A DNA stretch of 64,000 nucleotides from a virus (IMGVR_UViG_3300006028_000003:12032-76031); one strand, 5' to 3'; shown: positions 43,173 to 61,449, numbered from the stretch's first letter. Notes: generated by a model not told the origin, from the letters alone. Numbers and translations: made by a program.

Positions 43173-43445
43173 TTACTTCCCACTCCGCGCCGCGCCGCGC
43201 GGTTCTTCCCATCCGAAAGCTTCGGCCCACGTTTCAATCGCCCACGGAAGACTCCAGGGGGCGGCATTCAAAACCCGTCGCTCGTTACCGTGAAGGAACT
43301 CGGCAGCAGCCTTCACTAGATCGCGGGTCGCCTCATCAATGCCCGAGTTGATCAAAACGCTGAGGCGTCGGAATTGCTCCGCGCGGATGGCTTCGATTCC
43401 GCGAAGGCCTCCGTAGCGTCGCAGCCGCCGGCTCGAGAGGTTCAT
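43173..43445 (-). CDS. Hypothetical protein
   Basis: ATGA-coupled to groES. Confidence 0.5.
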   Translation of the reverse strand: MNLSSRRLRRYGGLRGIEAIRAEQFRRLSVLINSGIDEATRDLVKAAAEFLHGNERRVLNAAPWSLPWAIETWAEAFGWEEPRGAARSGK

Positions 43446-43732
43446 TCCTCGACCACCCCTAGAATGCTATCGTCGTGCATCGACAAGAGCTCAACCCCGT
43501 CGATCTTCACCTTCGGGAAAGGATCCTGCGCGCTGAAGACCACCCGATCTCCAGGTTGCACGGCCGGCATCGGGTAGCGGGTTCCATCTTTCAAGAGCAA
43601 CCCAGGCCCCATGAAAACGACCACCCCGGTTCCGGCCGGCTTCTTTGCGCGCTCGGGGATGATAAGGCCTCCTTTGGTCACTCCTTCAGGCTCATCGGGG
43701 CGGATGAAGATGCGATCACCGAGCGGCTTCAT
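43442..43732 (-). CDS. groES: Co-chaperonin GroES (Cpn10)
   Basis: MKPLGDRI...TKGGLIIP..AK..G.VV..GPG...V.PGDRVVF...IDG.E...DSILGV. Confidence 0.95.
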   Translation of the reverse strand: MKPLGDRIFIRPDEPEGVTKGGLIIPERAKKPAGTGVVVFMGPGLLLKDGTRYPMPAVQPGDRVVFSAQDPFPKVKIDGVELLSMHDDSILGVVEE

Positions 43733-43928
43733 TGGGCCTCCCTTCAAGGTAAATATCGATCACCGGATCGCCCGGAACCTCCGTAGCGCTCCCATAAAGG
43801 CCGGGGGGCCTCATGGCCTTGAGCGTTGCTTCGAGGGCCCCCACCCGTCGCGCGAGAGCGTTGGAATACTTCATCTCGAGCTCGAGGCATTTCGCCATCG
43901 TGTCGAGGCGTTCTTCAACCGTTGCCAT
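43716..43928 (-). CDS. Small coiled-coil protein
   Basis: MATVEERLD..., GGGG RBS. Confidence 0.5.
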   Translation of the reverse strand: MATVEERLDTMAKCLELEMKYSNALARRVGALEATLKAMRPPGLYGSATEVPGDPVIDIYLEGRPNEAAR

Positions 43929-44190: not shown

Positions 44191-44784
44191 TTAGACAACG
44201 ACGACTTGGCGCATGAGCTTACCGCCCCCGGCCCCGACCGTCAGAGTCCCGTCGCCCGTAGCGGCTGCTTTGACCGTCAGTACGCGAGATCCGGCTGCGG
44301 GCCCCACTTCAACAGCCCATGCAGCTGAGACTGCGGTAGCGCCGCCTGCATAACCCTGCTCTATCGGGCCGCCGATCACCGAAACACCATCGATCTGAAT
44401 GTCGAGCTCCAACGCACCACCGGCTGAGCTTCCGGCGACGCCAGCAGCGACGTAGCCGGTGATGATGATGCTCTGCCCGGCCACGATCGTTACCGTCGCG
44501 GTGGCAACAGTTGCAAGCGATCCCGTCAGAACAACGGGGGCGCCGTTACTGGACGATCCAGTCGAGACCAGGTTTGCGGGGCCGGTGGGACCAGTAGCGC
44601 CGGTTCCCCCAGGGCCAGTCGCTCCCGTTGCTCCGGTAGGCCCCGTCGCGCCGGAACCAGCGGGGCCCGTTGGACCAGTCGCACCAGAAGGACCCCCTGG
44701 CCCAGTCGCTCCGGCGCCACCCGGAGGGGTTCCGACGGATGTTGCGATTGTGCCGACGTAGGTGCTGTAGGGGATAGGGGGCAT
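44191..44784 (-). CDS. Short collagen-like fibre with beta head
   Basis: About 15 GAT/GPT triplets; head with DIQIDG. Confidence 0.8.
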   Translation of the reverse strand: MPPIPYSTYVGTIATSVGTPPGGAGATGPGGPSGATGPTGPAGSGATGPTGATGATGPGGTGATGPTGPANLVSTGSSSNGAPVVLTGSLATVATATVTIVAGQSIIITGYVAAGVAGSSAGGALELDIQIDGVSVIGGPIEQGYAGGATAVSAAWAVEVGPAAGSRVLTVKAAATGDGTLTVGAGGGKLMRQVVVV

Positions 44785-44806
44785 GGTTTTTCCGTCGGTC
44801 CGGGTT

Positions 44807-45274
44807 TTACAGATCCGCGACTACAATCGTCGCGTCGCCGGTGAGAATTTGCGCGGTGTGACCACCGCCAATTGACGCCCTGACCCCGTAGGTATGGGAG
44901 GCGCCGGGGGCCGGAGTGTCGATGAAGGTGGCGGCCCCGAATGCTTTGACGCTCCCGGTTGCGGTTCCTGCGCTCACCTCGGAGGTGCCGCCGACTGGGG
45001 TGGTTCCATCGCGGAAGATCTGAACGGTTACCGCGTCACCGTCGGCTAGGGTTCCGGGGGCGACGCTGATCGTTCCAACGACCAACACCTTGCCGGTTCC
45101 GGAAATAAACGCACTCGAGTCCCACTCCACCGTTGCGCCGGGCCCGATGGGAGCGGCGTTGGTCTGGCTCAGGTTGTTACCGGAGGGGCTTCCCGACGCG
45201 CCGCGCCCGAGGGCACCGAGGATCGAGGTGTAGGCCTTGTTAGCCAGAGCGGTAACGGATTTCATGGGGATCAT
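44807..45274 (-). CDS. Fibre-head-like virion protein
   Basis: Beta-rich, QIFRDG...F.DTP..G.SHTY. Confidence 0.6.
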   Translation of the reverse strand: MIPMKSVTALANKAYTSILGALGRGASGSPSGNNLSQTNAAPIGPGATVEWDSSAFISGTGKVLVVGTISVAPGTLADGDAVTVQIFRDGTTPVGGTSEVSAGTATGSVKAFGAATFIDTPAPGASHTYGVRASIGGGHTAQILTGDATIVVADL

Positions 45275-45768
45275 CCTCGGCGGCGGTTTTTCTTCCAGTA
45301 AAGGTAGCCGAAAACACCGGCGGTCGCGACTCCAGCTCCGATGAGAGCAAACGGAATCATGTTCGACGGTGGGGGGTTCGTAGGAACAGTCGGAGTTGGG
45401 GTCGGCGGTGTCGGGGTTGGTGCCGGAGGCACAACGGGGGGGACAACGGGGGGAGCCGGGGGAATGACCGGAACAACTGGCGGAGCGACACTAGGGGTGA
45501 AGCAATCCGGGGGCGCGGTCCCCTGCCCGAGGGTGCTCATCACGAATTGCAGCGCCCCGCGGGTTAGCGGCCCATACTTCCCGTCTTCAACGAGCGGGTT
45601 GTTTGGGTTAGCCAGGTTCCATTGCACCTGGAAGTCATGGCATTCCGGAAAGGGTTGCTGGGTGCAAGGATTGCCCGAAAGCCAGCCGATCAGATCAGCG
45701 GCGGTCTGCGCGAGGGGCGTTGGCGGAAGATCCGGTTGCCCAAAAGCCAGTCGAGGCATCCAACTCAT
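45271..45768 (-). CDS. Peptidoglycan-binding domain + Pro stalk + C-terminal TM/basic tail
   Basis: FQ..WN...LVEDGKYGPLTRGAL; TM then YWKKNRRRG. Confidence 0.78.
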   Translation of the reverse strand: MSWMPRLAFGQPDLPPTPLAQTAADLIGWLSGNPCTQQPFPECHDFQVQWNLANPNNPLVEDGKYGPLTRGALQFVMSTLGQGTAPPDCFTPSVAPPVVPVIPPAPPVVPPVVPPAPTPTPPTPTPTVPTNPPPSNMIPFALIGAGVATAGVFGYLYWKKNRRRG

Positions 45769-46310
45769 CGATGATGCTTCTTCCGCTTCCAGGCCCAGTA
45801 AATCAAGCCGGCTCCGAGAACCGCGGCACCGCCGATGATGACGGGGGTTGGAATCCCAGTGGCTCCGGCGGGGGTAATGGCCGTCGGAGTCGTTGGAGCC
45901 GGCGCGGGGGGCTCGTCAGGTTGCGGCGTCGTAGGCACCACGTCGCTGAAAACATTCTGGGGCGCCAACTGCGAAGGCCCGATGACGTTGTTCAACGCAA
46001 CCTGAGTGTTGGGCCCATATTGGCCGTCAACAGTAAGGCTCCCAGGCAACCCGGAGCTATTGTAGGCGCTCTGGAAAGCAGAGACTTGCGGAACCGAATC
46101 TCGCGAAGGGGCATTGGTGGCAAAGAAGGCCATCAGATCCGCCGCCGCCGATTGCGCCGCGGGGAGGTCACCAAAGCCGGATCCACCCGCAAGGCCTTGG
46201 CTATAGGTGATCCCGTTAGCAGCAACCCACCAAGTTTTTTCGACTAGCATCGGAGTTGCTCCGAGGCCGAAGGGGCCACTTCCGAGGGGAGCTTTGATCC
46301 AAGTTTTCAT
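45765..46310 (-). CDS. Peptidoglycan-binding domain + Pro/Thr stalk + C-terminal TM/basic tail
   Basis: AFQSAYN...LTVDGQYGPNTQVAL; TM then WAWKRKKHHR. Confidence 0.78.
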   Translation of the reverse strand: MKTWIKAPLGSGPFGLGATPMLVEKTWWVAANGITYSQGLAGGSGFGDLPAAQSAAADLMAFFATNAPSRDSVPQVSAFQSAYNSSGLPGSLTVDGQYGPNTQVALNNVIGPSQLAPQNVFSDVVPTTPQPDEPPAPAPTTPTAITPAGATGIPTPVIIGGAAVLGAGLIYWAWKRKKHHR

Positions 46311-47117
46311 TTACATCTCCACCACGAGGGAAACACCGACCCGCCAATATCGAGGGCGCCCGCCTTCGTCGCTGCCGAAGTTGCCGATGAAGTTCTCCTC
46401 GAGAGGAAGGCCAAGCGCTGGAGTCAACGCGGGGTAGGCTCCGGAGCTTTGCTTCACGCTGATGAAGAACGCGATGGTGTCGGGGCCTTCAACGGTGATG
46501 TCGAGGCTACGCCAGGCGCCGTGCGTTCGCTGTTGGGTCCGGAGGTCGAAGAAGGTGGAGTGGTTCCCTTGGCTAAGGGGGGTTCCCCAGGGGCGGCCCA
46601 ACATCGGCGGTTGGTAGGAAGTGAGCTGGGTGTAGATCCGGTTCCCTGCGGCGATAGTGTATTTGTTGTAGAGGAGGCAAGGGCCATCAGCCCAAAGCCG
46701 CTTGAAGCTATTCAAGTCAAGCGGGGTCGGATCGGTCAGGGGATACCCGGAGTTATTCGGGGGCCCGAGTCGATGCATGTGCCAAGAAATGTTGCCGTCG
46801 GGCAACCGGAAGTTGGGGGAGATGATCTCCTGCTCGACGAATCGAGTCGGAGAAGTTGCAACCCCAAGGGAGGCAAATTGCCGGTAGCCAACGATGCGAG
46901 CAACCCCGCCTTCGCCAAGGCTGAAGGAGGCCCCCAAGAAAAGATACCGGGAGGCCTTATCCGAGGTCGCAAGGGTTGGGACCCTCAAGCCGAAGGAGGA
47001 GGCCCCGCCGAAGGGGTCTCCGCCTTGAGCTTGCAAGAACTCATCGAGGCCGGTGGTCTCAAACTCCGAGACGCGCCGGCTCCCTCTGAGTAGTTCGGGG
47101 TTGAGGGGCTGCACCAT
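46311..47117 (-). CDS. Putative minor capsid/vertex protein (jelly-roll-like)
   Basis: Soluble, beta-rich, directly downstream of two capsid candidates; ends V.GPDTIAFFISV.Q...WRVGVSLVVE. Confidence 0.45.
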   Translation of the reverse strand: MVQPLNPELLRGSRRVSEFETTGLDEFLQAQGGDPFGGASSFGLRVPTLATSDKASRYLFLGASFSLGEGGVARIVGYRQFASLGVATSPTRFVEQEIISPNFRLPDGNISWHMHRLGPPNNSGYPLTDPTPLDLNSFKRLWADGPCLLYNKYTIAAGNRIYTQLTSYQPPMLGRPWGTPLSQGNHSTFFDLRTQQRTHGAWRSLDITVEGPDTIAFFISVKQSSGAYPALTPALGLPLEENFIGNFGSDEGGRPRYWRVGVSLVVEM

Positions 47118-47124
47118 CGCGGTC

Positions 47125-47877
47125 CTACAATGAGAGGACCATCTTGATGTAGGAGTCGCTCATCTCGATCCCGAAGTCATTCTGCAACGAGTCGATGGCC
47201 TCGCGGGTCGTCATTGTAACAAAAGATTGGGTTACTGGCACCCAGCCGCGGTAGGTGCAGACGACTTCGATCGGCGCGTAGGGGAGAAGGATCTTCGCGT
47301 TGAAGTCCATCCACAACTGCTGCTGATAGGTGAGCACCCAACCGCCAGGCCAATGGGAGCTCCCGGTGACCATATCGGCCAACGTACTCAACGGGGTGTA
47401 TTTGTTGGCGACGTCGTAGCGAGGCGCGCCTTGGATGCTCAGCTTTGCTTCGATCCCCGACTGGAAGCCGAAGAAGAAGTCGCTGAACGCTTGGAATTGG
47501 TTTTGGTTCGCGGTCGAAGATTCGTTCTGAACCCTCACCACCAACGCATCGATGAGGGTGTCCTGAACGATCTTGACGTCGGAGCCGACCCCGGTAATGA
47601 CCGAAGTTGCGGTATCGGGGAAGATTGCCCGGACGTTGATGATGTAAGGCGCGAGGGGAACTCCCTTCGCCTTGGCGAGAGCGAGCCTCGGAGAACCCGC
47701 CGCCAGCATCGCGTAGACGCCGGCAGCGAGGGGTCCGAGGACATTGTCGGTGCAGTCGCAGCTCCCCATACCGAAGGCTTTCACCTTCGGCTTTGGGGGG
47801 GCTCCGAGACCCGCTGTTTTCGAGAGCAGCTTTTCGAGTTGCTCGTTGGAGATCCAGGCTCCTGCTTGCTGAGTCAT
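47125..47877 (-). CDS. Putative single jelly-roll capsid protein (small MCP-like)
   Basis: AGGAGG RBS; alternating strands YIINVRAIF..KIVQDTLIDAL..AKLSIQG..TPL..WVL..QLWMDF..EVVCTYRG. Confidence 0.5.
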   Translation of the reverse strand: MTQQAGAWISNEQLEKLLSKTAGLGAPPKPKVKAFGMGSCDCTDNVLGPLAAGVYAMLAAGSPRLALAKAKGVPLAPYIINVRAIFPDTATSVITGVGSDVKIVQDTLIDALVVRVQNESSTANQNQFQAFSDFFFGFQSGIEAKLSIQGAPRYDVANKYTPLSTLADMVTGSSHWPGGWVLTYQQQLWMDFNAKILLPYAPIEVVCTYRGWVPVTQSFVTMTTREAIDSLQNDFGIEMSDSYIKMVLSL

Positions 47878-47910
47878 CGAGGGTTACCTCCTTTCAGGGG
47901 GTAGCCCCGA

Positions 47911-49266
47911 TCACTGCGCTGCGAACCGCATCCCGACGCACTCGAACACGGCCGCGCGGATGTCGGCGCTCGCACTGAGCTGGTTGTACCAATCCTGGGA
48001 GACTTCGAAGCCGCGGATCGGGAGGGTCAACTTGAGGTCGCCAGACTGGTAGACAACGCGCTCGGCGTCGACTTGCTGCGCGACGTCGGTTCCGTCGAGG
48101 GTGCGCTCCAACATGACGGGAGAAGCGCCGCCTGCGGTCGGCTCCGCGATCCAGTTGCTGTCCGACGTGAAGATCGGGGGGATGCTCCCGCCGAAGCCCT
48201 GCGTGATGCTGAGGAACTGGCGCATCTGGTCGCCTTCCACGGAGTCACACTCCTGAAGGAAGATCCCGATCGGAACGCCGCGGGGGATCACGTAGGGGAC
48301 GCAGAGCTTGCGCATCTCCTTGTTGCCGTTGAGCATCGACCGGAGATCCATGCCGCCGTAGGTGGCGCCGACGATCTCGAAGTCACGCGTCGGGGTGAAC
48401 CGCCCGACGTTGACACCGCCGGTGGCCGCAGAGCCGAGCCGAAGGAAGTCGACGCGGCTGAAGTTGAGGGCCGTGCCGAGCTCATCGTAGCGCTGGTTCA
48501 GGTTGCGCTCGAAGGTGACGGTATCGACCTCAGAGCTGGAAGCAGAGCCTTCCTGCGCCGACGGAGGCATGTACGCCGTGTGACGGAGCTGATCGTCGCA
48601 GATGTTGGTGTGCTGACCGATCTTCCACCGGTAGTTATAGGCGCGGCTCATGTGCCAGCAGACGTAGTTCGCCCACCACCCGTGACGCCACACCGCGGGG
48701 AGAGCGACGCCCGTGGGGCTTGCGCCTGCGAAAGCGGCGCCGAGAGCTCCGTTGAAGCGGTCGTTCTGGGTGAAGACGTCAGGAGAAGGCGGCTTCGCAA
48801 CAGCGGCCGTCGGATGCGTAAACGCATTGCCCCGGGCGGTGAAGCAGAGGGGTTCCGGCTCCATGATGAAGCCGACATAGCAGGCGACGAAGTTCGTCTG
48901 GGTCTGCCCGGTCTGCGCCATCGTGGTTTCCACGAAGTCGATTCCGAAGGGCGACTTGCCGGCGCCGAAGAGGTCGATCTCCGCGCCGAAGTTACTCCGG
49001 ACGCTTTCGTCGACCTGAGGGCCGGTCATCGTCCATCGGACTTCCTCGATCACGTCCATGTTCCAGTAGGGGGTGTTGCTTGACTCCTGCATCAGGTCGA
49101 TGATGCTTCCGAACCCAGACTTGAGGGTCGCGGCGTCCTTGACCTTACTGAGGTCGAGCGCTCGGCCCTGACCAACCTGGTATCGATCGCTGGGCCGCTC
49201 CCTCTTGCGGATTTCCGCCGCCCGAGGGGCGACATTGCGAGACTGAACGAGACCTCTGTAATCCAT
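47911..49266 (-). CDS. Putative major capsid protein (vertical jelly-roll-like)
   Basis: GGAG RBS, strongly biased codons; IDLFG...ETTMAQTGQ...FVA..VGF resembles the LF..TNM..GQ..F.V pattern of jelly-roll MCPs; PYVIP.G.PI.I.L; terminal L.L.IRGFE. Confidence 0.58.
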   Translation of the reverse strand: MDYRGLVQSRNVAPRAAEIRKRERPSDRYQVGQGRALDLSKVKDAATLKSGFGSIIDLMQESSNTPYWNMDVIEEVRWTMTGPQVDESVRSNFGAEIDLFGAGKSPFGIDFVETTMAQTGQTQTNFVACYVGFIMEPEPLCFTARGNAFTHPTAAVAKPPSPDVFTQNDRFNGALGAAFAGASPTGVALPAVWRHGWWANYVCWHMSRAYNYRWKIGQHTNICDDQLRHTAYMPPSAQEGSASSSEVDTVTFERNLNQRYDELGTALNFSRVDFLRLGSAATGGVNVGRFTPTRDFEIVGATYGGMDLRSMLNGNKEMRKLCVPYVIPRGVPIGIFLQECDSVEGDQMRQFLSITQGFGGSIPPIFTSDSNWIAEPTAGGASPVMLERTLDGTDVAQQVDAERVVYQSGDLKLTLPIRGFEVSQDWYNQLSASADIRAAVFECVGMRFAAQ

Positions 49267-49365
49267 GATGCGATTCTCCGTGGTTAGGTGGCCCTCTTAG
49301 GCGCCCACCAGTTTTGAACCGCACTCAGCTTTCGTTTCCCCGGAAGCTGGAATCTTGCTCAAGAT

Positions 49366-50928
49366 CTATTCGTCGTTGAAGCCCCAGTTGAAGCGGTTTC
49401 GGCCGCCATTCTTGGGGACTCCGGTAAGGTTCTGCATGTTGAGGCTCGGCGGAGGAGCCGCGGGGGGTGGCGGGGGAGGAGGCGGCGGGGCCGTCATCTG
49501 GGGGGTCGGCGCCTGGGTTTGGGCGTTTTGGGAGGTTTCCCGGGGCATGCTCGGGTAACCCAGGTTTTTTTGCTCGCAGGGAGCGCAATCACCAAGGGGT
49601 TTCCCAAGCTGGGGCCTTCCGAGGCCTGCTGAGGGGAGGGAAGCCAAATCGGCGGCTTGCTGGTTTCCGTTGTTCGCCTTGAGAACCGCGGCCCTCATCT
49701 CACCGTCGTAGAGGCGCTGGCCGGTTCCCATGCCCTTGGTGAGCGTCGCGATTGCGTCGATGGCGCCCTTACCAACGACTCGAACTCCCCAGCCGAACGC
49801 TGCGAATTGCATCGAAGCGCGGACCATCGGGGCCTTGACGAAACTCGCGGTGACGAACATCACCGCGGGAACGCCGATGCCGGCGGCCCATCGGCCAAGA
49901 TCCATCGGAGCGCAAATCGCGGTCGGATTGAAGAGCCCGGAATAACTCCCGGAAGTCGGAGGGTTGTCGGCGTAGAGCTCGTTTCCGTTCGCATCCTTGG
50001 TGCCCTTATCGGTCAGGGCGTGGGTCGCGATGAAGCGGTCGAGAGCATCGCCGCCGAGGAAGCCGAGGGTGCCGAAGATCGAGGCGACGAAGAGCTCACC
50101 GCCAGTCAAGCCGTATTGGCTTGGGTTGCGCCTCGATCGGCCACGGCGTCGACCACGGCGGCGCTCGGCCGCGTAGTCTTCACGTCGACTCGACCGGCTT
50201 CGGAAGCCCTGCGAAGCCATACGGCCTCGACGGGCCGCGTGGGCCTTTTTGATGTTGCGGCGGGCGGCGGCGATTTGCTTTCGGCTCGCCTTGCGCTTTC
50301 CACCACCGCTCTTGCGGCGACCGCGCGACTTCCGCTTCGGGGCTTTGCCCGCCCGGCGTCGACGTGCCCAACCCTTTTTGGCTGCCTTCGCGTGCCGACG
50401 AGGGGCTCCACGCCATTCGCTTGCGGAGCTCTTTCGGCTCTTCCGACGCCGTTTCGCGGCCTTGCGCTTCGCCTTGCTGCGCTTGCGCTTCGGGGTCGGG
50501 TTGTGCTTTGCGCGCCGCTTACCCTTCGACCGGCGCTTTTTGCGCGGGGTCTCGGAGGCCCGATGTTTCGATCGACGCGCGGCCTTTGCGGCGCGGATCA
50601 TCTTCCGCGTAGCGCGCTGTTGCGCAGCGGTGCGAGCCTTCTTGCGACCCTTTTTCTTGGCCATCGGTGCTTTCCTCGAAGATTTTGCGCCTGACCTGCC
50701 TTTCCCCGTTGAAGTTGTGCTCTCTCGAAGTGAAGCGCGGCGGCGATGGTATGTCAAGCCCCTCCCCTTCTTGTGCGCCTTCTTCTTAGTCTTACGGCGG
50801 TAGCCAAAATCTAGCCGCCGGCCTTTTTTGCTCTCCTTGCTACCGGTGATCCGGCCCTTGGCTGTCGCGGCAAATTCGGGCCCGGATTCACGGTTGGAGT
50901 CCAGGCGAGCGAGGTAATCTATCGGCAT
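49366..50928 (-). CDS. Protamine/histone-like Arg/Lys-rich protein with C-terminal membrane domain
   Basis: About 240 aa of K/R tracts ending RRNP, then hydrophobic helices and a Pro-rich tail; RBS at 50928 and at internal ATG 50664. Confidence 0.8.
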   Translation of the reverse strand: MPIDYLARLDSNRESGPEFAATAKGRITGSKESKKGRRLDFGYRRKTKKKAHKKGRGLTYHRRRASLRESTTSTGKGRSGAKSSRKAPMAKKKGRKKARTAAQQRATRKMIRAAKAARRSKHRASETPRKKRRSKGKRRAKHNPTPKRKRSKAKRKAAKRRRKSRKSSASEWRGAPRRHAKAAKKGWARRRRAGKAPKRKSRGRRKSGGGKRKASRKQIAAARRNIKKAHAARRGRMASQGFRSRSSRREDYAAERRRGRRRGRSRRNPSQYGLTGGELFVASIFGTLGFLGGDALDRFIATHALTDKGTKDANGNELYADNPPTSGSYSGLFNPTAICAPMDLGRWAAGIGVPAVMFVTASFVKAPMVRASMQFAAFGWGVRVVGKGAIDAIATLTKGMGTGQRLYDGEMRAAVLKANNGNQQAADLASLPSAGLGRPQLGKPLGDCAPCEQKNLGYPSMPRETSQNAQTQAPTPQMTAPPPPPPPPPAAPPPSLNMQNLTGVPKNGGRNRFNWGFNDE

Positions 50929-50937
50929 CGAAGCCTC

Positions 50938-51996
50938 CTAGGGGCGCACAAAACCACGGTCGTCCAGTTGAGCACCGCGGGGGAGCTCCAACCGACAAAA
51001 CTTTCCGCGTTTGTAGAGGCGGACCTTCTTGTGGCCCCCCAAGAGTGACATCAAGCCCTTGTTGAATTCATGGCGAAAATAGCCCGCGCGTCGGCCACTT
51101 CGGGTGTAGAAGATGTCCGCCACCTCCCCCAAGTAAGACCAATCCCTCAACGCCTTCGGCGGGGTGTTGACCCTTCCGAGGTGACCGTCGCTCCGACCAA
51201 AGTAAGCCTTCGCATCGCCTTCGATATCAACCCGGCTTTCTCGAAGCTTAGCCGGCCCAATCAAAACACTCTTTGAAGGCCACCATCGGCCGCTCGGGTC
51301 ATGCATCATCGCTCCGGAGCAATGAATCTCGCGGCCGTCGGCAAGTTCGAAGGTGACCCCGCGCCCCTTGGCGATAAGGGCCTTGCTTCCTAGTTTTCTT
51401 CCGCCGCCGCCGGTGGGATTTTCCTTGGGCCCCTTGAAGATCATCCAACCCATCACCCCGAGGCCCACCGCGACGAGGCCCCACAAAGCGGCCGCCGCAA
51501 CGCTAGTCGGTGTCGACGTAGAAGTAGCTTTGACGGGGGTAGCGGGGGTGATCTGCGGCGCTGACGCAACCGGGCCTCTTAGATCTGCTTGAATGAGCTT
51601 CGCGAGGTCTTGGGCGGTATGAGCGGTCTGGGGTGAAGCGAGGTGCCAGTCGAGCGCTTGCAGTTGGGTGAGGACCCCATCGATTTCGGGGGGCCAAGAA
51701 GTGACCTGCGCCTTGATCGTCGCAACTTGCGGGATGATGGCTTGGTAGGCCTGGACCGCATTTTCCCACTTCTTGGCGACCATGAAGGCGTCGCCGGAGT
51801 CGATCGTGACCCCGAGGTTCTGCAAGTCGACCGCGGCGGAGCCGAAGCCTTGCGGTATTCCCCCTAGAGTCGGACACGCTCGTATGTGCATGAGGCCGTC
51901 CGACCCGAGAACGTCATGTCCTACGCCACGTGCACAACGGCCGCAGTATCGAGAGCCATCCTGCCGAAGGACTATCGCCGAGCTTTCCGAGCCCAT
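50938..51996 (-). CDS. Membrane-spanning virion protein (helical domain, TM, KENP, basic C-domain)
   Basis: TM AAAALWGLVAVGLGVMGWMIF; C-domain LGEV..I.Y.R...YFRHEF; start uncertain. Confidence 0.65.
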   Translation of the reverse strand: MGSESSAIVLRQDGSRYCGRCARGVGHDVLGSDGLMHIRACPTLGGIPQGFGSAAVDLQNLGVTIDSGDAFMVAKKWENAVQAYQAIIPQVATIKAQVTSWPPEIDGVLTQLQALDWHLASPQTAHTAQDLAKLIQADLRGPVASAPQITPATPVKATSTSTPTSVAAAALWGLVAVGLGVMGWMIFKGPKENPTGGGGRKLGSKALIAKGRGVTFELADGREIHCSGAMMHDPSGRWWPSKSVLIGPAKLRESRVDIEGDAKAYFGRSDGHLGRVNTPPKALRDWSYLGEVADIFYTRSGRRAGYFRHEFNKGLMSLLGGHKKVRLYKRGKFCRLELPRGAQLDDRGFVRP

Positions 51997-52376
51997 AGCC
52001 ACCATCCTACCCCAGTCACCGCAACAAGGCCGGCCGCGACATAAACGGGGGTTAGCGGAACCGGCTTCGATGGGATCTCCCCGCCCGGGGGCGTCGGGGT
52101 TCCGCCATCGGCATCGACCCAAGCGGAAACCGCATGAGAGTCATCAATCCAGCTCAACACCCCAGGGACCCCCCAGGGGATGCTTCCGTCGGCCGTTGCG
52201 GTCGCGGCGATCAAACTTCCACCGGGAACCACCGCGAAGGAATAAACGCTAAGGCCGTGCTTCGTCGCAAAGCTTTTGATGTCAGCCTCGGAATGCGACG
52301 TCGCTACTAGGGCCGCGTAAGCAGAGCCTTTCTTGGTGGCGATGTCTTTCCCGGTTGGGAGAGCTACCCAAGTCAT
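51972..52376 (-). CDS. Small membrane protein with C-terminal TM/basic tail
   Basis: TM then WWLWARKARR. Confidence 0.7.
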   Translation of the reverse strand: MTWVALPTGKDIATKKGSAYAALVATSHSEADIKSFATKHGLSVYSFAVVPGGSLIAATATADGSIPWGVPGVLSWIDDSHAVSAWVDADGGTPTPPGGEIPSKPVPLTPVYVAAGLVAVTGVGWWLWARKARR

Positions 52377-53671
52377 CGCCGGGGCAAGAGCCGATCTAGC
52401 GTGTAGAGCCCCGCGATCGTGCCGACGATCCCGAGGATCAACCCAACCCCCCCGATTTCGATCGTGCTTGGATTGGTCAACTTCTGACCGAGCGTTTGGT
52501 AGGCCTCGAGAGCGCCGCCCGCACCCTTCGTGAAGAGCTGAAGGACCCCATGCGCCAAAATTCCAAGGCCCTCAACCTGGCCAACGACTTGCTGCTGAAG
52601 GCCAAGCCCAGGGGGATCTGGCAACGCTAACGTCGGGCAGTCTCGCTTCACCTGGGGTTGGTAAAAGTTGCCGACATCCGTCACCACCTTCTGGAAGTCG
52701 ACTAGGATGTCCCCAGCCGAAGCGACGATCTCCCAGTCTTGGAGGCCCGCGTGTTGGTTCCAAGACGACGTGATCGAGTCAGAAATATTTTGGTTTGCGT
52801 TGGCCCAGAGCTGCAACGTCTTCTGATCTGGAGGGGCGGCGAACTCGCTTGCATTTGGGGTTGGGCCGGTGCCATCCGCGGCGGCTTTCCAAGCGGCGGA
52901 ACAGCTTGCGGCGGCCCTAGCGGTGCCCATCACAAAGTCATCCCAAAGACTACGGTACGCGAGAACATCCCCGGGGGTAACGGCTCCGTGGGTCGCTTGG
53001 CCTAGCCCCCAATGCGGCGTTGTCGATCCGCGATGAATGCGGCGAACCGCGGGGGCCTTCCCCAAGGTGACCATCTCCGGTTGCGCCTCTCCGAGCGGAC
53101 CGACTGGCCCCATCGGGTCGACCCACACCTCGTCAACCGCGGGCGCCGCACTTCCGAACGGCATCTTCGTGGAGGGGTCGGCGTAGCGCCAGTCAGAGCC
53201 ATCATAAACCGCGATCAGAACATGCTCTTGGGCGGTGCCTCCGAAGTTTTGCTTCACGATTTGTGTGGGCAACCCGATCGACAAGTAAAGGCTCCCCAAA
53301 GCCACGCTGAGGTCATCGCAATCCCCGCCTTGGATGCAGAGGTTCGGCCGCAAGCAAAGGGTGGCGCCCGCGCTCTGAATCGATTCGGTTCCGTAGGGGT
53401 CGCTCGTGTAAACCGTTGCGGACCGAAGGCAATCTAGGATCGCGGCGGCTTGCTTTGCTGCGGTCGTCGACCCATCGCGGCCGTCGAGGCCCTTCGCGCG
53501 AAGACAATCAAGGGCCCACTGTTTGACTCCCGCGTCGATCTTGCCCTCCCTCATCTTCTGCGCCATCGTCTCAAGGGACATGCGAATCCCAGCCTGGCCG
53601 TTGGGATAGTTCCCGACGGTCACCGGAATACCGGCGGCGCGCATACTTTGGAGGCCAGGATCGAAGGCCAT
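52373..53671 (-). CDS. Transglutaminase-fold (Cys-His-Asp) enzyme fused to a helical domain with C-terminal TM
   Basis: GGDCDDL (Cys), QEHV (His), WRYADPS (Asp); linker with TLG and WGLG; TM then LLPRR. Confidence 0.82.
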   Translation of the reverse strand: MAFDPGLQSMRAAGIPVTVGNYPNGQAGIRMSLETMAQKMREGKIDAGVKQWALDCLRAKGLDGRDGSTTAAKQAAAILDCLRSATVYTSDPYGTESIQSAGATLCLRPNLCIQGGDCDDLSVALGSLYLSIGLPTQIVKQNFGGTAQEHVLIAVYDGSDWRYADPSTKMPFGSAAPAVDEVWVDPMGPVGPLGEAQPEMVTLGKAPAVRRIHRGSTTPHWGLGQATHGAVTPGDVLAYRSLWDDFVMGTARAAASCSAAWKAAADGTGPTPNASEFAAPPDQKTLQLWANANQNISDSITSSWNQHAGLQDWEIVASAGDILVDFQKVVTDVGNFYQPQVKRDCPTLALPDPPGLGLQQQVVGQVEGLGILAHGVLQLFTKGAGGALEAYQTLGQKLTNPSTIEIGGVGLILGIVGTIAGLYTLDRLLPRR

Positions 53672-53680
53672 CTAGGCCCC

Positions 53681-53959
53681 TTACTTACTCGACGAGGTGG
53701 ACCCCGGAGCGAGTGAAGCGCTTGTGGGTCCGGCCGGAGGCGTTGGGCCTGTAAGAGCCGTCGAAGCGGGGGGAGTCGGCGCCATCAAACTCCCGGCGAC
53801 GAAAGCCGCCACCAAAGCCCCGACCGCTCCGAAGGCCGCGGTCACATTCCCGGGTCGCTTCGCGTTGGCGAGCTCTCCGATCACCAATCCCGCGACGGCT
53901 CCGGCGGCGCCCCCGAGGACCGTTACGAACCCTACCGTTGTGCCAGCTTTCACATCCAT
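53681..53959 (-). CDS. Small two-TM Gly-zipper protein
   Basis: AGGAG RBS; two GxxxG-rich helices. Confidence 0.7.
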   Translation of the reverse strand: MDVKAGTTVGFVTVLGGAAGAVAGLVIGELANAKRPGNVTAAFGAVGALVAAFVAGSLMAPTPPASTALTGPTPPAGPTSASLAPGSTSSSK

Positions 53960-53969
53960 GAGGCTTCTC

Positions 53970-54470
53970 CTAGCTGACTACAATCGTAACATCGAAGCCA
54001 GGGGCCCCACTCATCGTGAAGTCAGGACCGGTTCCGTGGTCTTCCATGACGCCGGGGGTCAGGTGGATGACCGCGGTTCCGGGCGCAATCGCCTTGTAGG
54101 TGCCGGAGGCGAGATGCATCCCGGTCGGCGTCGGGTTGACCTCCGCGAGAGAGGGGTTGATCGTGAGGGGCCCGCCTGAAGAGGTGGGCTTCAGGGAGAC
54201 GGCCCAAACGAGAGTGGGATCACTCACCACCGGCGTGATCTGGATCGTCTCACCGACATGCATCCCGGCTTCCACCGGGCCGGTCGGCTGAAGCAAATAA
54301 GTGGCCCTCGGAGCCGTCGGAGGAGCGAAAACCGGAGCGTTAGAAGGAGGCGCTGGAGTTGGAGCCGAAGCCGCGACGGCCGAAGGCGGGGGCCGGAAGA
54401 TGAGGTAAAGCGCCACCCCGGCTAGAGTTGCTCCGCCGACAGCAAGGGCTATTTTGGTCTCCTTCTTCAC
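53970..54470 (-). CDS. N-anchored membrane protein with Ig-like domain
   Basis: KKETK + TM + Pro stalk; YKAIAPGTAVIHL. Confidence 0.68.
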   Translation of the reverse strand: MKKETKIALAVGGATLAGVALYLIFRPPPSAVAASAPTPAPPSNAPVFAPPTAPRATYLLQPTGPVEAGMHVGETIQITPVVSDPTLVWAVSLKPTSSGGPLTINPSLAEVNPTPTGMHLASGTYKAIAPGTAVIHLTPGVMEDHGTGPDFTMSGAPGFDVTIVVS

Positions 54471-54477
54471 CGGGGGA

Positions 54478-54894
54478 TCAACCGGTTGCGAGGAAGGCCG
54501 CGTTCGTCGGGTTCACGCCGTCTTGCAGCGCAACGACCCCGTTCGGAACCGGCCCCGATTGGCCGTTGTACTTGGCGATGGCGACGTAGCTTGAGCCACT
54601 GCCTTGCAATCCCCCGGGGGTTACGCCGTTGCCGTTGAAGAAGAGGATCCCCACCGAAGTCCAGCCGGCCTGCTTCAAGGCCGTGACGAGGGAGTTGACA
54701 TCGGAAACCCCAGAGGGCACCGAGGCCGCGAAGGTGTATGTCTGCCCGTTGGTAAACTGGGTCACCGGGGTTCCGGCGGTAAGTTGACCGGCCGGAACTG
54801 AGGGGGCCTTGTACTTTTCGTAGTACCAGACGCCTCCTGCAATCGCCGCGAGAACGCCACCGCCGATGAGCCAGTTTCGCGTGGAACGCTTCAT
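54478..54894 (-). CDS. N-anchored membrane protein
   Basis: MKRSTRNWLIGGGVLAAIAGGVWYY; promoter directly upstream. Confidence 0.7.
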   Translation of the reverse strand: MKRSTRNWLIGGGVLAAIAGGVWYYEKYKAPSVPAGQLTAGTPVTQFTNGQTYTFAASVPSGVSDVNSLVTALKQAGWTSVGILFFNGNGVTPGGLQGSGSSYVAIAKYNGQSGPVPNGVVALQDGVNPTNAAFLATG

Positions 54895-54901
54895 GCGGCT
54901 T

Positions 54902-54953
54902 ATGCTACCGCCGGTGGCACGGAAGTGCAATTGTCAAGGGGATGCGGTAGTCT
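54902..54953. promoter_or_regulatory. Divergent overlapping sigma70-like promoters of the structural module
   Basis: Minus: TTGCAC-N17-TAGCAT, 7 nt to ATG. Plus: GTGCAA-N17-TAGTCT, 8 nt to ATG. Both -10s preceded by GCGG. Confidence 0.6.
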
Positions 54954-54961
54954 GAGACTCG

Positions 54962-56239
54962 ATGGTGACCCCGCCGCATTGGCCTCAGGGTAGGACCGGG
55001 GTTGGGGCCAGCCTTTCGGATTTCACTGAGCTAGCCACCTCAGACCCCCACTTCGACCAAGCATGGGGCGAAATCAACGGCCAGCTCGACATCGAGGGCG
55101 CCGGCACCACCGAGATCAACTCCGCCAAGATTGCATTGACCAACGCCTTCGAGCAGCTTTCGACCCAGAGCTTCGGCCTCAGCGGCCAGGATGCGATCAA
55201 CGCCGCGAAGCAATACGTCTTGGTGGGGCAAACGGTCCTAGGGGCGGTTCAGACAGTGGGGGGCCTCGTCGGCCAGCTCGAGAATGGGGCACCTCCTCTT
55301 GAGGTCATGCAGGCCTTTACCGGAACCCTCATCGGGTTGGCGGCGGGCGCGGGCCTCATCTCCGCGGGCGTCGGAGCGGCCATCGTCGCCGGAGTGGGGG
55401 CCATACTCGACATCCTTGGCTCCGTTGGGTTGTTTGGAAGCCCGCCACCAGGGGTTGGGGTTCCGGGCTGCAATTACTCGGTGCCTTCTCAACCGGATTT
55501 TCAATTCGGCTGCATCGTCGCGTGGGGCCCCAAGGTTGAACCGACGTCAACCCAGTGGCGGAAATTCCCCCAACCGGGAAACCCACCCGATGAGCCTTGG
55601 TTTCAACCGATCCCCAACACTTCGACGGTCTACGGCGACTGGCCTCAGATTCCAAACGGGCCTCCCCCCATTCGTCTCGGGGGCCCGGCTCCGGCTGGAA
55701 GGCCGATCGATACCGGCTTCCCGGCTTACCAGCGGGCGCTCAACGATTCGAGCAACGGAGGCTTCTTCCTCGCCTTCTTTCAAGCCTGGCAGAGCAACGC
55801 GGAATACGCGCTGAATGGGTTGAGGCCCCAGCCTGACGAGCAGGTCTTGATCCACACGTTGAGGTTGTGGAATCGAGCGCACGATGGGCCGATGGTGCCG
55901 CTTCGCGGGGGCTTCTACGCCGAATCGCTTGTGCCGCTCGCGATGAACACGTTGAGCGGGAACGACCCCCTTATGTTTGCGGGGGGCCTCGGGATCAATG
56001 TGGGGCCCATCAAGAGCCCTCCCCGGAAGGTCATCGCGCTTCACCTTCCGTCAGGAAGCATCAAGGCCTCGCCAACTTTACCGGGGGCCACTTCAACCGG
56101 CGCCAAGGTCGCCGCAGGAACCGCCGTCGTCGGCGGAGCCGCTATTCTAGGAACCGTTGTTTTTAGCTTGGTCAAGGGCCAAGCGGTTGACGCGGTGTTG
56201 GGGCACGCCTGGAAACATGTGAAGGGATGGTTTCGATGA
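54962..56239 (+). CDS. Membrane-associated virion protein (possible DNA-delivery protein)
   Basis: Leader ending GVG, helical domain, central Gly-rich TM, Pro/Trp domain, C-terminal TM. Confidence 0.62.
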   Translation: MVTPPHWPQGRTGVGASLSDFTELATSDPHFDQAWGEINGQLDIEGAGTTEINSAKIALTNAFEQLSTQSFGLSGQDAINAAKQYVLVGQTVLGAVQTVGGLVGQLENGAPPLEVMQAFTGTLIGLAAGAGLISAGVGAAIVAGVGAILDILGSVGLFGSPPPGVGVPGCNYSVPSQPDFQFGCIVAWGPKVEPTSTQWRKFPQPGNPPDEPWFQPIPNTSTVYGDWPQIPNGPPPIRLGGPAPAGRPIDTGFPAYQRALNDSSNGGFFLAFFQAWQSNAEYALNGLRPQPDEQVLIHTLRLWNRAHDGPMVPLRGGFYAESLVPLAMNTLSGNDPLMFAGGLGINVGPIKSPPRKVIALHLPSGSIKASPTLPGATSTGAKVAAGTAVVGGAAILGTVVFSLVKGQAVDAVLGHAWKHVKGWFR

Positions 56240-56607
56240 GACGTCGCAAGGCCAAGAAGAATCCCTCCGGCTCTACCTGGCTCCTTCTCGGAGTCGGCGC
56301 CGCCGCCCTCGGAGTGGGGGCCTACTTCCTCCTGAGGCCTTCGACGCCAAGCCAAACCGTAACTTCTGCGGCCCCAACTCCTGCGGCCCTTCCTCCCGGT
56401 GCAGATGTCAACGCCGCTACTTCCGCAACGCGGTTGATGCTCCTCGGAAATCAAGCCGAGGTGGCTCCCGCGGCGATGTGGCTGAAGCAATTCCAAGCCA
56501 GCGTCGGCCTTCCCGCAACGGGAGTTTTGGATCCGACAACGAGGGCCCAGTTGAACAAGGCAACGGACCTTGCGAGGCAGTTGCCGGCGACGACGATCCT
56601 CGGTTAG
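56236..56607 (+). CDS. Basic+NP leader, TM and peptidoglycan-binding domain
   Basis: MRRRKAKKNP, TM, LKQFQASVGLPATGVLDPTTRAQL. Confidence 0.8.
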   Translation: MRRRKAKKNPSGSTWLLLGVGAAALGVGAYFLLRPSTPSQTVTSAAPTPAALPPGADVNAATSATRLMLLGNQAEVAPAAMWLKQFQASVGLPATGVLDPTTRAQLNKATDLARQLPATTILG

Positions 56608-56688
56608 CCTTCGAACGCCGTTAGAGCTGCCTCTAGCGTATCGAGGGCTCCGCCTTCTCGACAGCTTTTTGGAACGCGGCTTCTGCTT

Positions 56689-58155
56689 TCACGGAGCTTC
56701 CCATCCACCTTGGCTAGGCGGGGCCCCATTGGGCATTGGCGGAACCGATCCGACTCCGCCGTCGATCGCGCCTGCCGGAATCTCCTTCACGACTCGAGCC
56801 GGCACCGCCGCGGGCCCTTGGGTGAACTTCACGATCGCATCCTTCATCGCGTTCCCCAGCCCGTTGGCGAGGTCCATCGCGCGCTCCGCGATGACGGGGT
56901 TAGACATGAAAACCCCTAGAGGACTTATTTCCTCAGACTCCTTGTCTTTTGCGTAGATGATGGGCCGACCATCGGACCATTTGGCGCCGGGAACCTCTGC
57001 GACGGTCCAAGGGATGTCGTCCTCAGGGTTGCGCGGCGCCGGCTTCTCCTCCGGAGCTTCGGGCTCCTCTTCTTCAGGAGCCTTTGGGGGAGCGCCCATA
57101 CCCGTAGCTTGGCTGATGCTTCGCTCCATCGTCTTGCCAGCGTTGTTGATGATGTTTTCCATCAAGCGGCCGACCATTCCTTCGAGCGACTTGGCGAGGC
57201 CGCCGGTGGAGACCGGCGGGGGCGGAGGCGCCGCAACCGTCGGAGGAGGCGCCGGTGGGGCTGCAACCGCCGGCTTGAAAACGCCCGCCGTTTGGAGCGC
57301 CATCAAAACCTGAGCGGTCACCTTCTGAGCGAGGGCCTCTTCATTTACAACCGGGGCCGCGACTCCGGGGGGCGCCGGGATGTTAGGTTGCCTTCCTTCC
57401 CTTGCTGCGCTGAGGGCTTCACCGAGGGCCCCACGAAGGTAGGAGAGCTCACTCATCAATCCAGCATCGGGCGGAGCCGGGGCCTGCGGGGGCATTGGAT
57501 TCCCATAGGGGTTACCGTAGCCAGGCGGGGGGGCCCACTGCTGTTGCGGTTGAAACGAAAAAGGCGCCTGGGCTGGCGGCCCCATCGGCATCGGAATCCT
57601 CGGCGCTGCAACTCCCGGCTGCCCCGCATCCGCCTGGTCTTGCGCGTTGATGATGTTCCGACAGGTCTGCACGTCGGGCATCGCTACAGATGAAGTTGTA
57701 ATGGATTGGCCGTCGGCCTTGCGCCCGAAGTAGACGTTGTAAGCCGCGGGGCCCGCTGCGCCGGTGCCGATGTGAGCGAACCGCATCGCGTAGTCGACGA
57801 GGGCTTGGCCTGGGGTCAGCTCACCGCCGCCCGCGATTGCCTCACCACCGACCCGGCCAACGAAAACCGGCCCGTTGGGCGAAGGAGGATGGGTTCTATG
57901 GAAGGAAATTGAAACGTCTCGGGGGCTAAGGTTTTGAGTCGGTAGCCATGCAACGAGGTCGTTCCAGGTTTGCTCCGCCTCGCCGGTCCCGACCCCGCCA
58001 GAGGCCCGATAGAACTTCTTCGGGTCGATGGCGCCAGCCCCGCGCTTGTTGGGCTTGGGCTTGCGTTGATGACCGGGGGGTCGCTGGGGGGCCTCGTCGG
58101 TTTCCTCTTCCTCAGAGCCGTCGTCGATATCTTCACGATCTTCGGGGGCGGTCAT
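56689..58155 (-). CDS. Pro-rich protein of unknown function
   Basis: 488 aa; acidic N-terminus, globular domain, PGVAAP repeats. Confidence 0.7.
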   Translation of the reverse strand: MTAPEDREDIDDGSEEEETDEAPQRPPGHQRKPKPNKRGAGAIDPKKFYRASGGVGTGEAEQTWNDLVAWLPTQNLSPRDVSISFHRTHPPSPNGPVFVGRVGGEAIAGGGELTPGQALVDYAMRFAHIGTGAAGPAAYNVYFGRKADGQSITTSSVAMPDVQTCRNIINAQDQADAGQPGVAAPRIPMPMGPPAQAPFSFQPQQQWAPPPGYGNPYGNPMPPQAPAPPDAGLMSELSYLRGALGEALSAAREGRQPNIPAPPGVAAPVVNEEALAQKVTAQVLMALQTAGVFKPAVAAPPAPPPTVAAPPPPPVSTGGLAKSLEGMVGRLMENIINNAGKTMERSISQATGMGAPPKAPEEEEPEAPEEKPAPRNPEDDIPWTVAEVPGAKWSDGRPIIYAKDKESEEISPLGVFMSNPVIAERAMDLANGLGNAMKDAIVKFTQGPAAVPARVVKEIPAGAIDGGVGSVPPMPNGAPPSQGGWEAP

Positions 58156-59051
58156 GCAATCACCGGGGGGCTAGCGGAAACGGGGCCGAGAGTAGCCTGC
58201 TCAAGCGCGACGTTCATCAAATTCTTGAAGGGGGCCGCCTGGTCACTTCCAGGGGGAAAGATTGCCTGGAAGTAAGGCGTCAACACCACCGTAGGGGGCT
58301 CGGTGAAGCCAGCCCCGGGGTTAGTCAGCAGGATCAGATCCAACCCCATGCTGACGGTCACCACCGCACCGCTCCCAGGAACCGCCGCTGGATCGATGAC
58401 GGCAATCGACGGGACCGAGGTATAACCGCTTCCGGGATCCGTCACGGTGACGGCGGTGACGACCCCGAGGGTAATCGTCGGGGTGAGAACCGCCTCTCGG
58501 CCCCCCTTCGTAAGGCCGCCTTGAACCAAGATGAAGGTCCCGGGGTTATAGCCTCCACCCCCGGCGGTTACCGCAGCTGAAACTACCTTCAACCTTGCTT
58601 CGGCGTGAGCCGGGGCGTTGAGGCTTCCATCGGCCAAGTTGACCGGATCTGGATCGCCTGGGGAAGTGTTGAAGTATTGCCGATCCATCTGGTCGGATCG
58701 GAAAGACAACACCTGGGGGGTTTCCTTGCTTCGGCCACCGGAGAAGGAGACGACCGGCGGAAGGATATAACCGGATCCCGGTGAGGTGACAGTGATGGCG
58801 TTCAGCGGAGAGCCAGAACCATCGCCGGGGATGAGCGAAACGGTAGCCGTTGCAGCACTCACCGGGTTCAAACCGAGGACAAGAGTCCTGACTACCGGGG
58901 AGGCGACGGGAGTTGAATCCGAGATGACTCTGACCCCGAGAAATGAAAGGGCATCTTTCGGAACAGGAACCGCCGCCATCAACGCCGCGACTTGCGCAGC
59001 AGAGGCTCCGCCGAGGAAGGCTTTGTAGGTTAGTGTTGCGGTGGAGGACAT
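58152..59051 (-). CDS. Virion-type protein with (I/V)TVT.PG.GY...P beta repeats
   Basis: 4 repeats: ITVTSPGSGY, AVTAGGGGY, VTVTDPGSGY, LTNPGAGF. Confidence 0.68.
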   Translation of the reverse strand: MSSTATLTYKAFLGGASAAQVAALMAAVPVPKDALSFLGVRVISDSTPVASPVVRTLVLGLNPVSAATATVSLIPGDGSGSPLNAITVTSPGSGYILPPVVSFSGGRSKETPQVLSFRSDQMDRQYFNTSPGDPDPVNLADGSLNAPAHAEARLKVVSAAVTAGGGGYNPGTFILVQGGLTKGGREAVLTPTITLGVVTAVTVTDPGSGYTSVPSIAVIDPAAVPGSGAVVTVSMGLDLILLTNPGAGFTEPPTVVLTPYFQAIFPPGSDQAAPFKNLMNVALEQATLGPVSASPPVIA

Positions 59052-59876: not shown

Positions 59877-60050
59877 TCAAGTCATACCGGCGCAGAACAG
59901 GCAGCGGGCCATGCCGCAACGTTGAATGCGAAGGAGATGCCTAGGTACCTCATGGCCGCACTCTAACGTTAGCCAGTACTTATACTGACGCTCTGAAGAG
60001 CGGACACTTACAATCTTACGGCGGGGGCCGGCGCGAGAGACCTGGCTCAT
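59877..60050 (-). CDS. Zn-finger micro-protein
   Basis: LTLECGH...RCLFC; ATGA overlap. Confidence 0.5.
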   Translation of the reverse strand: MSQVSRAGPRRKIVSVRSSERQYKYWLTLECGHEVPRHLLRIQRCGMARCLFCAGMT

Positions 60051-61441: not shown

Positions 61442-61449
61442 AGGGTACT

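Follow-up and report, generated by a model that had tools for sequence, protein, structure and literature searches.

Virion-module proteins of an uncharacterised family of ~70-80-kb soil viruses share a short Gly-hydrophobic-Gly motif (G-phi-G) in their leaders and linkers, and the role of this motif is considered here together with that of a transglutaminase-fold enzyme encoded in the same module. The window analysed, 64,000 nucleotides in length, comprises bases 12032-76031 of the single 76,031-bp virus contig IMGVR_UViG_3300006028_000003, and the host is presumably bacterial. Judged from the sequences, G-phi-G is a genuine family-wide short linear motif, common to proteins without detectable mutual similarity. 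In at least six virion-module proteins it is found where a variable, disordered leader or linker gives way to a conserved core. That it is a signal for proteolytic maturation, whatever the enzyme, comes close to an even chance in our estimate. The reading that we favour, tentatively, is that of a common maturation cleavage signal for which the transglutaminase-fold enzyme is the leading candidate.

The G-phi-G motif in the virion module

The 15 proteins encoded between 44807 and 58155 contain 27 instances of G-[LFVM]-G, where 10.8 ± 3.2 are expected from whole-protein shuffles, whereas the remaining 101 open reading frames of the genome contain 39 against 35.7 expected. Since hydrophobic membrane segments contain or adjoin about 6 to 7 of the 27 instances in the block, these segments were masked in a second test, in which shuffling was confined to blocks of 10-40 residues. 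The virion block then had 21 instances against ~10 ± 3 expected, and the rest of the genome 35 against ~36. Shuffled controls had been proposed in an initial annotation of this DNA, and those made here give an approximately twofold excess in the block and none elsewhere in the genome. In the modules of three complete relatives (G001, G002 and G003, with capsid identities of 74, 62 and 59%) the local-shuffle test gave 17, 19 and 21 instances against 7.6, 9.0 and 9.1 expected, with a slight excess of 1.2-1.35x in the rest of their genomes. The permuted tripeptides GG-phi and phi-GG were not enriched in the modules. Taken together, the shuffles, the relatives and the permuted controls indicate a module-specific excess that is governed by the order of the residues. 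The motif was defined post hoc, from the data in hand, which makes these shuffle statistics descriptive, and because it was picked after the data had been seen, the weight is carried by conservation and by replication in the relatives, whose enrichments are, by common ancestry, non-independent events. A defined subset of sites passes both.

At least seven sites across six protein families are conserved. The proteins and sites concerned are listed below.

47911-49266, minus strand: putative major capsid protein of 451 aa with a leader of ~50 residues, so named from its homologues, its GC content at third codon positions (GC3) and weak jelly-roll-type matches
49165-49173, minus strand: capsid site 1, G32-Q-G34, with the family pattern V-G-x-G-[A/L]-P-[P/I]-D
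49108-49116, minus strand: capsid site 2, G51-F-G53, directly before the first helix (S-I-I-D-L)
47125-47877, minus strand: conserved virion-module protein of 250 aa with a bipartite leader, orthologues in 29 loci
47803-47811, minus strand: site 1 of the 250-aa protein, GLG followed by APP (residue 23)
47764-47772, minus strand: site 2 of the 250-aa protein, GMG followed by S or C (residue 36)
49366-50928, minus strand: basic (Lys/Arg-rich) membrane protein, orthologues in 27 loci
49618-49626, minus strand: site L-P-S-A-GLG-R in the C-terminal tail of the basic protein (residue 435)
54998-55006, plus strand: site R-T-GVG-A (residue 13) of a 425-aa membrane protein (54962-56239)
57094-57102, minus strand: site GMG (TGMGA) of a 488-aa protein (56689-58155), followed by APPK and an acidic, Pro-rich linker
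46170-46178, minus strand: leader site GFG (SGFGD) of a tail-anchored 181-aa protein (45765-46310), with G-phi-G in the leaders of orthologues

In an alignment of 40 capsid sequences with a variable leader, G32 of site 1 is invariant and G34, as well as G51 and G53 of site 2, is at least 90% conserved. The G-x-G of site 1, which was absent from the list in the initial annotation, is found in 23 of 24 locus orthologues. Leaders with one or more G-[LFVMIA]-G are present in all 110 anchored homologues, and with at least two in 96 of them. The last of these motifs is separated from the conserved NMDVIE core by 17-18 residues in 106 of the 110, and the residue following it is S in 77 and A in 18. 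In the AlphaFold2 model of the protein (predicted local distance difference test, pLDDT, of 78; ~18 strands) residues 1-50 are of low confidence and the first helix starts at residue 53. We infer that this is the major capsid protein from gene order, from the abundance of homologues (more than 230, all unnamed, on contigs of 60-82 kb), from its GC3 of 0.84, the highest in the genome, and from weak fold matches of the model (Z of at most 4.9) to capsid proteins of the single jelly-roll type and the double jelly-roll lineage among unrelated sandwiches. Foldseek returned nothing below E 1e-3 for the model, and the ESM Atlas gave no usable match.

The leader of the 250-aa protein is built on the same plan as the capsid leader, with a helix, G-phi-G-A-P-P, a short basic spacer and then G-phi-G-[C/S]. 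At its site 1, G-phi-G occupies the same column in 17 of 21 orthologues and G23 is at least 90% conserved, while G36 and G38 of site 2 are invariant in 22 of 22 sequences. No relatives of this protein were found in Pfam, PHROG or the PDB. The basic protein, a putative DNA-condensing, protamine-like core protein, has its GLG (AGLGR) in the same column in 17 of 19 orthologues, and a second x-phi-G follows 5-8 residues on. For the 425-aa protein (TGVGA), [R/K]-x-G-[LIV]-G is found at the equivalent position in all three covered orthologues, and in the 488-aa protein G-[LIM]-G is present in four of four. For the 181-aa protein, G-phi-G occurs within 12 columns in five of five orthologues, out of register, and the equivalent leaders in relatives contain one to three such sites.

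When the 110 conserved instances are pooled, the middle residue is L in 55%, F in 12%, V in 9%, I and A in 6% each and M in 4%. The preferred context is P/R/K at -3, a small or aliphatic residue at -1, then G, and after the second G one of A/S/C/R followed by P, P and D. Every site has, in addition, its own conserved flanks, such as LPSA-GLG or G-phi-G-S-I-x-D-L, and paired sites 8-20 residues apart recur in three unrelated proteins. The sites lie in regions of low pLDDT at a fixed distance from the folded core. Comparison of the 250-aa, 268-aa and capsid families with hhalign revealed no homology besides the short motif, and the G-x-G site was all that matched between the 250-aa and capsid families. 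When these three families and that of the enzyme were compared with the PDB by profile, no meaningful sequence relatives emerged. The shared leader and linker motif of the initial annotation is family-wide, and is situated in low-confidence, variable segments directly before conserved cores.

All peptides listed in the initial annotation were found in the genes to which they had been assigned. About half of these instances are kept across orthologues of 45-75% identity, whereas the rest are background. FGLGA at residue 15 of the 181-aa protein is present in none of five orthologues, only one of which covers the site, and LAFGQ (45271-45768) is not a G-phi-G. Conservation was likewise not seen for GGVGS of the 488-aa protein, the motifs at residue 96 of the 250-aa protein and residue 357 of the capsid protein, GMG at residue 399 of the basic protein, or QGFGS and GVG of 50938-52122, whose N-terminal part is missing from orthologues.

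Several observations concern neighbouring genes of this group. Only the C-terminal ~155 residues of 50938-52122 (minus strand) are kept in relatives, where the gene encodes 154-217 aa, and the long N-terminal part with QGFGS is specific to the window and a 97%-identical twin; the annotated start is doubtful, or the gene is a fusion. The 268-aa protein (46311-47117, minus strand) has a related sequence, L-Q-G-[IV]-G-G-D-P-F, at residues ~28-35 in about half of its orthologues and x-phi-G-G-D-P in the others and in the window, in both cases after a conserved rather than a variable N-terminus. The genes of the 425-aa protein and of a 126-aa protein form a 1.7-kb segment (54962-56607, plus strand) that is inverted relative to the rest of the module. 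Their orthologues in G001, G002 and G003 are oriented like the capsid gene, and a search for inverted repeats around the segment gave nothing notable.

Three known types of signal were considered for these sites and rejected. A lipobox, suggested by the G-phi-G-C of the 250-aa protein, would require a hydrophobic signal peptide, which this protein lacks; LPSAG would need, as a sortase-like signal, an enzyme of the sortase type, and none was seen; and the hydrophobic helix that follows a prepilin-type site is missing after the motif.

The transglutaminase-fold enzyme

The enzyme of the module, with its triad codons, is encoded as follows.

52373-53671, minus strand: tail-anchored transglutaminase-fold Cys-His-Asp enzyme, with the catalytic domain at 53057-53671 and a C-terminal membrane helix at 52388-52462
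53318-53320, minus strand: codon of C118
53222-53224, minus strand: codon of H150
53177-53179, minus strand: codon of D165

The catalytic domain alone matches Pfam Transglut_core (PF01841) with 23.4 bits against a gathering threshold of 23 (E 7.6e-5), whereas the whole enzyme, at 20.8 bits, falls below the cut-off; several homologues carry a precomputed PF01841 annotation. In the structural model the first ~205 residues have a pLDDT of 94. The VIA Z scores of the enzyme are 13.5 to 3kd4 (a putative protease), 11.0 to factor XIII, 10.7 to 3isr (a putative cysteine protease), 10.4 to PNGase, 9.9 to LapG, 9.4 to PeiW, 9.0 to PeiP and ~8 to N-acetyltransferases, and in BFVD it has a match to PeiP of psiM2. 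C118, H150 and D165 are invariant in 45 sequences, as are C106, C112, D117, D119 and G204. By the sequence threshold together with triad order and fold, the enzyme belongs to the transglutaminase-like superfamily, in agreement with the initial annotation, which had described an in-operon protein of this fold with an intact triad. The modelled fold on its own would fit a protease, a cell-wall peptidase or a cross-linker equally.

None of the 18 loci that extend far enough upstream lacks the enzyme, and in 60 of 72 homologues a membrane helix followed by RR is found at the C-terminus. A search of GenBank phages by tblastn with the enzyme domain and the capsid candidate returned nothing at E up to 1. 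Most orthologues start with M-[A/S/T]-(D)-F-x-P-G, and one with M-L-G-D-F. A few divergent orthologues possess 3-35 extra N-terminal residues ending in V-GLG, which is followed directly by D-F-x-P-G. The optional extension, as aligned, ends exactly at the motif, as would be expected for a propeptide removed at G-phi-G, and this is suggestive.

A LAGLIDADG-endonuclease intein is located immediately before the catalytic Cys in L003 (4984-7287), P0134, P0155, P0162, P0176 and P0180; the copy in the window has none. Inteins typically sit in essential active sites, and for this reason the intein at the catalytic Cys is counted in favour of the enzyme as the cutter. The tail-anchor architecture is common to the enzyme and to neighbouring proteins: those encoded at 45271-45768, 45765-46310, 56227-56607 and 51972-52376 each end in a membrane helix and a short Lys/Arg tail. 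Of this set, 56227-56607 has a PG_binding_1 match, and two others have, by eye, a DG-x-YGP-x-T motif that resembles a PG-binding domain and gave no Pfam match.

Cleavage signal or docking motif

We infer that the sites are cut, at what position and by which enzyme from the position and conservation of the motif and from known systems. In the reading that we favour, a virus-encoded cysteine peptidase would recognise G-phi-G during particle maturation and cut within or just after the motif. The tail-anchored Cys118-His150-Asp165 enzyme would be the leading candidate for this peptidase, and its catalytic domain would lie on the capsid-facing side of an internal membrane, next to the leaders. A cleavage signal is favoured because the sites are found at boundaries between disorder and core, have small-residue flanks and are often paired; because they occur in unrelated virion proteins, among which a universally conserved Cys-His-Asp enzyme is encoded; and because precedents exist in LapG and in the sites of the adenovirus protease.

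The sites of the adenovirus protease include IVGL/G and QRGF/G, and thus have a G-phi-G core (PMC4246237). In the systems of adenain, of pS273R of African swine fever virus and of poxvirus I7, many virion precursors, a DNA-condensing core protein among them, depend on a single cysteine protease for their processing. Leaders and linkers with a short consensus that contains Gly, often in paired sites, are common to adenain-type processing and the proteins described here. However, adenain-type enzymes belong to clan CE, with catalytic residues in the order His, Glu/Asp, Gln, Cys on the Ulp1/adenain fold, whereas in the present enzyme, with its transglutaminase-like fold, Cys comes first and is followed by His and Asp; membership of clan CE was rejected on account of this order, and no member of that clan is among the fold matches listed. 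The sites here also differ from those of adenovirus in having no hydrophobic residue at the P4-equivalent position, the presumed host is bacterial instead of eukaryotic, and cleavage is here a prediction. The maturation protease is one of the genes that eukaryotic members of the assemblage have in common, and it does not belong to the set that links them with tectiviruses (PMC4405056).

The initial annotation had remarked that some transglutaminase-fold proteins are proteases, and site-specific ones do exist, as is shown by LapG, a Cys protease with a transglutaminase-like fold and a di-alanine cleavage motif (PMC3032545, PMC10990149). The fold and the Cys-His-Asp triad are common to LapG and the enzyme, with 139 residues aligned in the fold comparison given above. 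LapG is soluble, periplasmic and calcium-dependent and releases a single adhesin, whereas the enzyme here is tail-anchored and encoded in a virion module, and no match to the LapG family was obtained with it in Pfam or NCBIfam. LapG-type enzymes are marked by a sequence family of their own and by calcium-binding residues near the active site. The match of the present enzyme to them is confined to the fold, and on either side of its catalytic Cys lie the invariant D117 and D119. The pseudomurein endoisopeptidases PeiW and PeiP of archaeal viruses are virus-encoded and have the same fold and triad as the enzyme. Their substrates are isopeptide bonds of the cell wall, cut in lysis, and they have wall-binding repeats in place of a membrane anchor; if the enzyme worked as they do, it would be unrelated to the motif.

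Two further systems remove leaders from proteins. In tailed phages, prohead proteases (T4 gp21 and HK97 gp4 type), which are of the serine class and have the herpesvirus-assemblin fold, recognise a short consensus in several head proteins and strip off their leaders during maturation. Glu is the last residue of this consensus in T4, and no such protease was seen among the proteins scanned. Double-glycine leaders of bacteriocins are removed during export by the C39 papain-like Cys peptidase domain of an ABC transporter. A Gly-ended leader and a papain-like peptidase are alike in that system and here, but the Gly-Gly consensus differs, and a C39 domain was not found here.

Several points weigh against cleavage by the transglutaminase-fold enzyme. 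The modelled fold would also suit cell-wall endoisopeptidases such as PeiW and PeiP, true transglutaminases, PNGase and N-acetyltransferases. The tail anchor is common to the neighbouring proteins, one of which has a PG_binding_1 match, and this hints at a role in entry. WGLGQ, at which the initial annotation had the enzyme split from its second domain, is not conserved, and neither are the two other GLG of the enzyme. Distant capsid homologues have up to five copies of the motif, and site 2 of the 250-aa protein is kept in leaders of only 5-8 residues (L026, L032), both of which fit docking equally. There are, in addition, two further peptidase-like genes, at 41263-42192 and 60047-61615. Of the precursor-processing code proposed in the initial annotation, the motif and the in-operon enzyme are retained, while several of the instances listed for it are lineage-specific.

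Unlikely when taken by itself, yet nearly as likely as the favoured reading, is that G-phi-G is an uncleaved docking or assembly motif, through which the flexible leaders attach to one and the same partner (the internal membrane, for instance, or a chaperone or scaffold-like protein), and with which the enzyme is unconnected. The multiple copies at variable spacing (two or more in most capsid homologues, four or five in some) would fit such a motif, as would its persistence in the shortest leaders, the conserved flanks specific to each site and the presence of a GroES homologue in the operon. Small residues around the motif and an exact position at the domain boundary are, however, typical of cleavage sites, and the short-form enzymes begin at the very point where the motif of the long forms ends. 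Furthermore, no partner was identifiable.

Cleavage by an enzyme other than the transglutaminase-fold protein is rather improbable. The cutter would then be one of the two proteins below or a host enzyme, and the transglutaminase-fold enzyme would be a cell-wall peptidase of the virion membrane, acting in entry or lysis, or a cross-linker. Neither of these two genes, nor the possibility of a cell-wall peptidase, had been noticed in the initial annotation.

41263-42192, minus strand: papain-family (C1-like) cysteine peptidase, last gene of the leftward late operon
41992-41994, minus strand: codon of its C67
41461-41463, minus strand: codon of its H244
41401-41403, minus strand: codon of its N264
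60047-61615, minus strand: protein with GNAT and RadC-like JAB domains, just upstream of the virion module (Pfam RadC, E 4.3e-21)

A profile of five sequences of the first protein matched xylellain (3OIS) with E 1.4e-12 over residues 9-284, and Q61, C67, H244 and N264 are invariant in it; the Pfam model for the papain family gave no match. By its Gln-Cys-His-Asn residues and the near-full-length similarity, the protein is assigned from sequence to the C1-like papain family. Papain-type enzymes prefer a hydrophobic residue at P2, and this preference would fit G-phi-G if the cut came after the second Gly. The existence of viral cell-wall enzymes of the transglutaminase fold (PeiW and PeiP), and the tail anchor that the enzyme has in common with neighbours such as the PG_binding_1 protein (56227-56607), would also suit this explanation: if the enzyme were a cell-wall peptidase like PeiW and PeiP, the cutter, if any, would be another enzyme. 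The C1-like gene is found in G001, G003 and L014. It was not found in the complete genome G002, even by a full unfiltered hidden Markov model search, and yet G002 keeps the motifs. It is moreover the last gene of its operon and lies beside a membrane protein, a typical lysis-gene arrangement, which suggests a role in lysis. The GNAT-RadC protein, a third peptidase-like candidate, has an intact HxHx7Sx2D motif and is conserved in G001, G002 and G003. JAB enzymes, however, normally need a substrate with a ubiquitin-like fold ending in Gly-Gly. The existence of a further lysozyme- or transglycosylase-like candidate at 14086-14787 is likewise counted against this explanation.

A functionless by-product of Gly/Ala-rich composition and membrane helices, to which the instances in or beside membrane segments and the non-conserved half of the listed peptides might point, is very improbable, for the excess outlasts helix masking and local shuffling, permuted tripeptides are not enriched, and the core sites are invariant or nearly so in 20-110 homologues; chance is excluded for this conserved subset, and the composition reading holds for the non-conserved instances only.

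Genome context and significance

The last ~110 bases of the contig repeat its start, which indicates that the genome is complete and either circular or terminally redundant. Relatives measure 69-82 kb, one of them with direct terminal repeats. Among the genes of the contig are those for a family-A DNA polymerase with a fused UDG domain, helicases, a VapE-like primase-helicase, a PD-(D/E)XK nuclease, an SNF2 helicase, a tyrosine integrase, ThyX and the GNAT-RadC/JAB fusion. No terminase, portal or HK97-type capsid gene was found among the proteins scanned with Pfam or PHROGs, and a Walker-A scan revealed no candidate for a packaging ATPase beyond a UvrD/PIF1-like helicase. Labels of Polyangiaceae and Chloroflexota, which come from two tiny contigs of metagenome-assembled genomes only, were not taken as evidence of the host.

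The virion block is one long leftward operon (44191-59051) of orphan proteins, many of them with membrane helices, and collagen-like fibre genes are present. Family matches in it are limited to the weak Transglut_core match and the single PG_binding_1 (56227-56607). A homologue of the GroES/Cpn10 co-chaperonin is encoded inside the late operon (43442-43747, minus strand) and is kept in 12 related loci. The gene at 14086-14787 (minus strand), which adjoins a collagen-like fibre gene, has PHROG matches to baseplate-hub and transglycosylase families and is a second cell-wall-enzyme candidate. Two large Gly/Thr-rich proteins (6797-8311 and 9559-10944, minus strand) have identical N-terminal 18 residues (M-K-P-x-D-R-G-R-V-K-R-L-E-A-L), and this common N-terminus may be an attachment module for alternative fibres.

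The most far-reaching form of the cleavage reading is that of a family of large bacterial viruses, presumably tailless and with a membrane, in which a membrane-anchored transglutaminase-fold protease cuts the capsid, second shell, core and membrane proteins as well as its own propeptide at G-phi-G. In this complete form we consider it doubtful. Tailed phages, adenoviruses and giant viruses are well known to process their virion precursors at a short consensus, and to our knowledge no such processing is known for non-tailed prokaryotic viruses. If true, the processing would be a functional parallel to the maturation of adenoviruses and giant viruses on a different protease fold, and the first in non-tailed prokaryotic viruses. 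The hypothesis is testable with two or three cloned genes.

Hundreds of members of the family have come from metagenomes, and none of its relatives has been cultured or annotated. Leaders ending in G-phi-G provide a sequence signature by which virion proteins can be recognised in this otherwise unannotatable group. Should G-phi-G be a docking signal instead, the motif would nevertheless specify the way in which shell, core and membrane proteins of these viruses come together.

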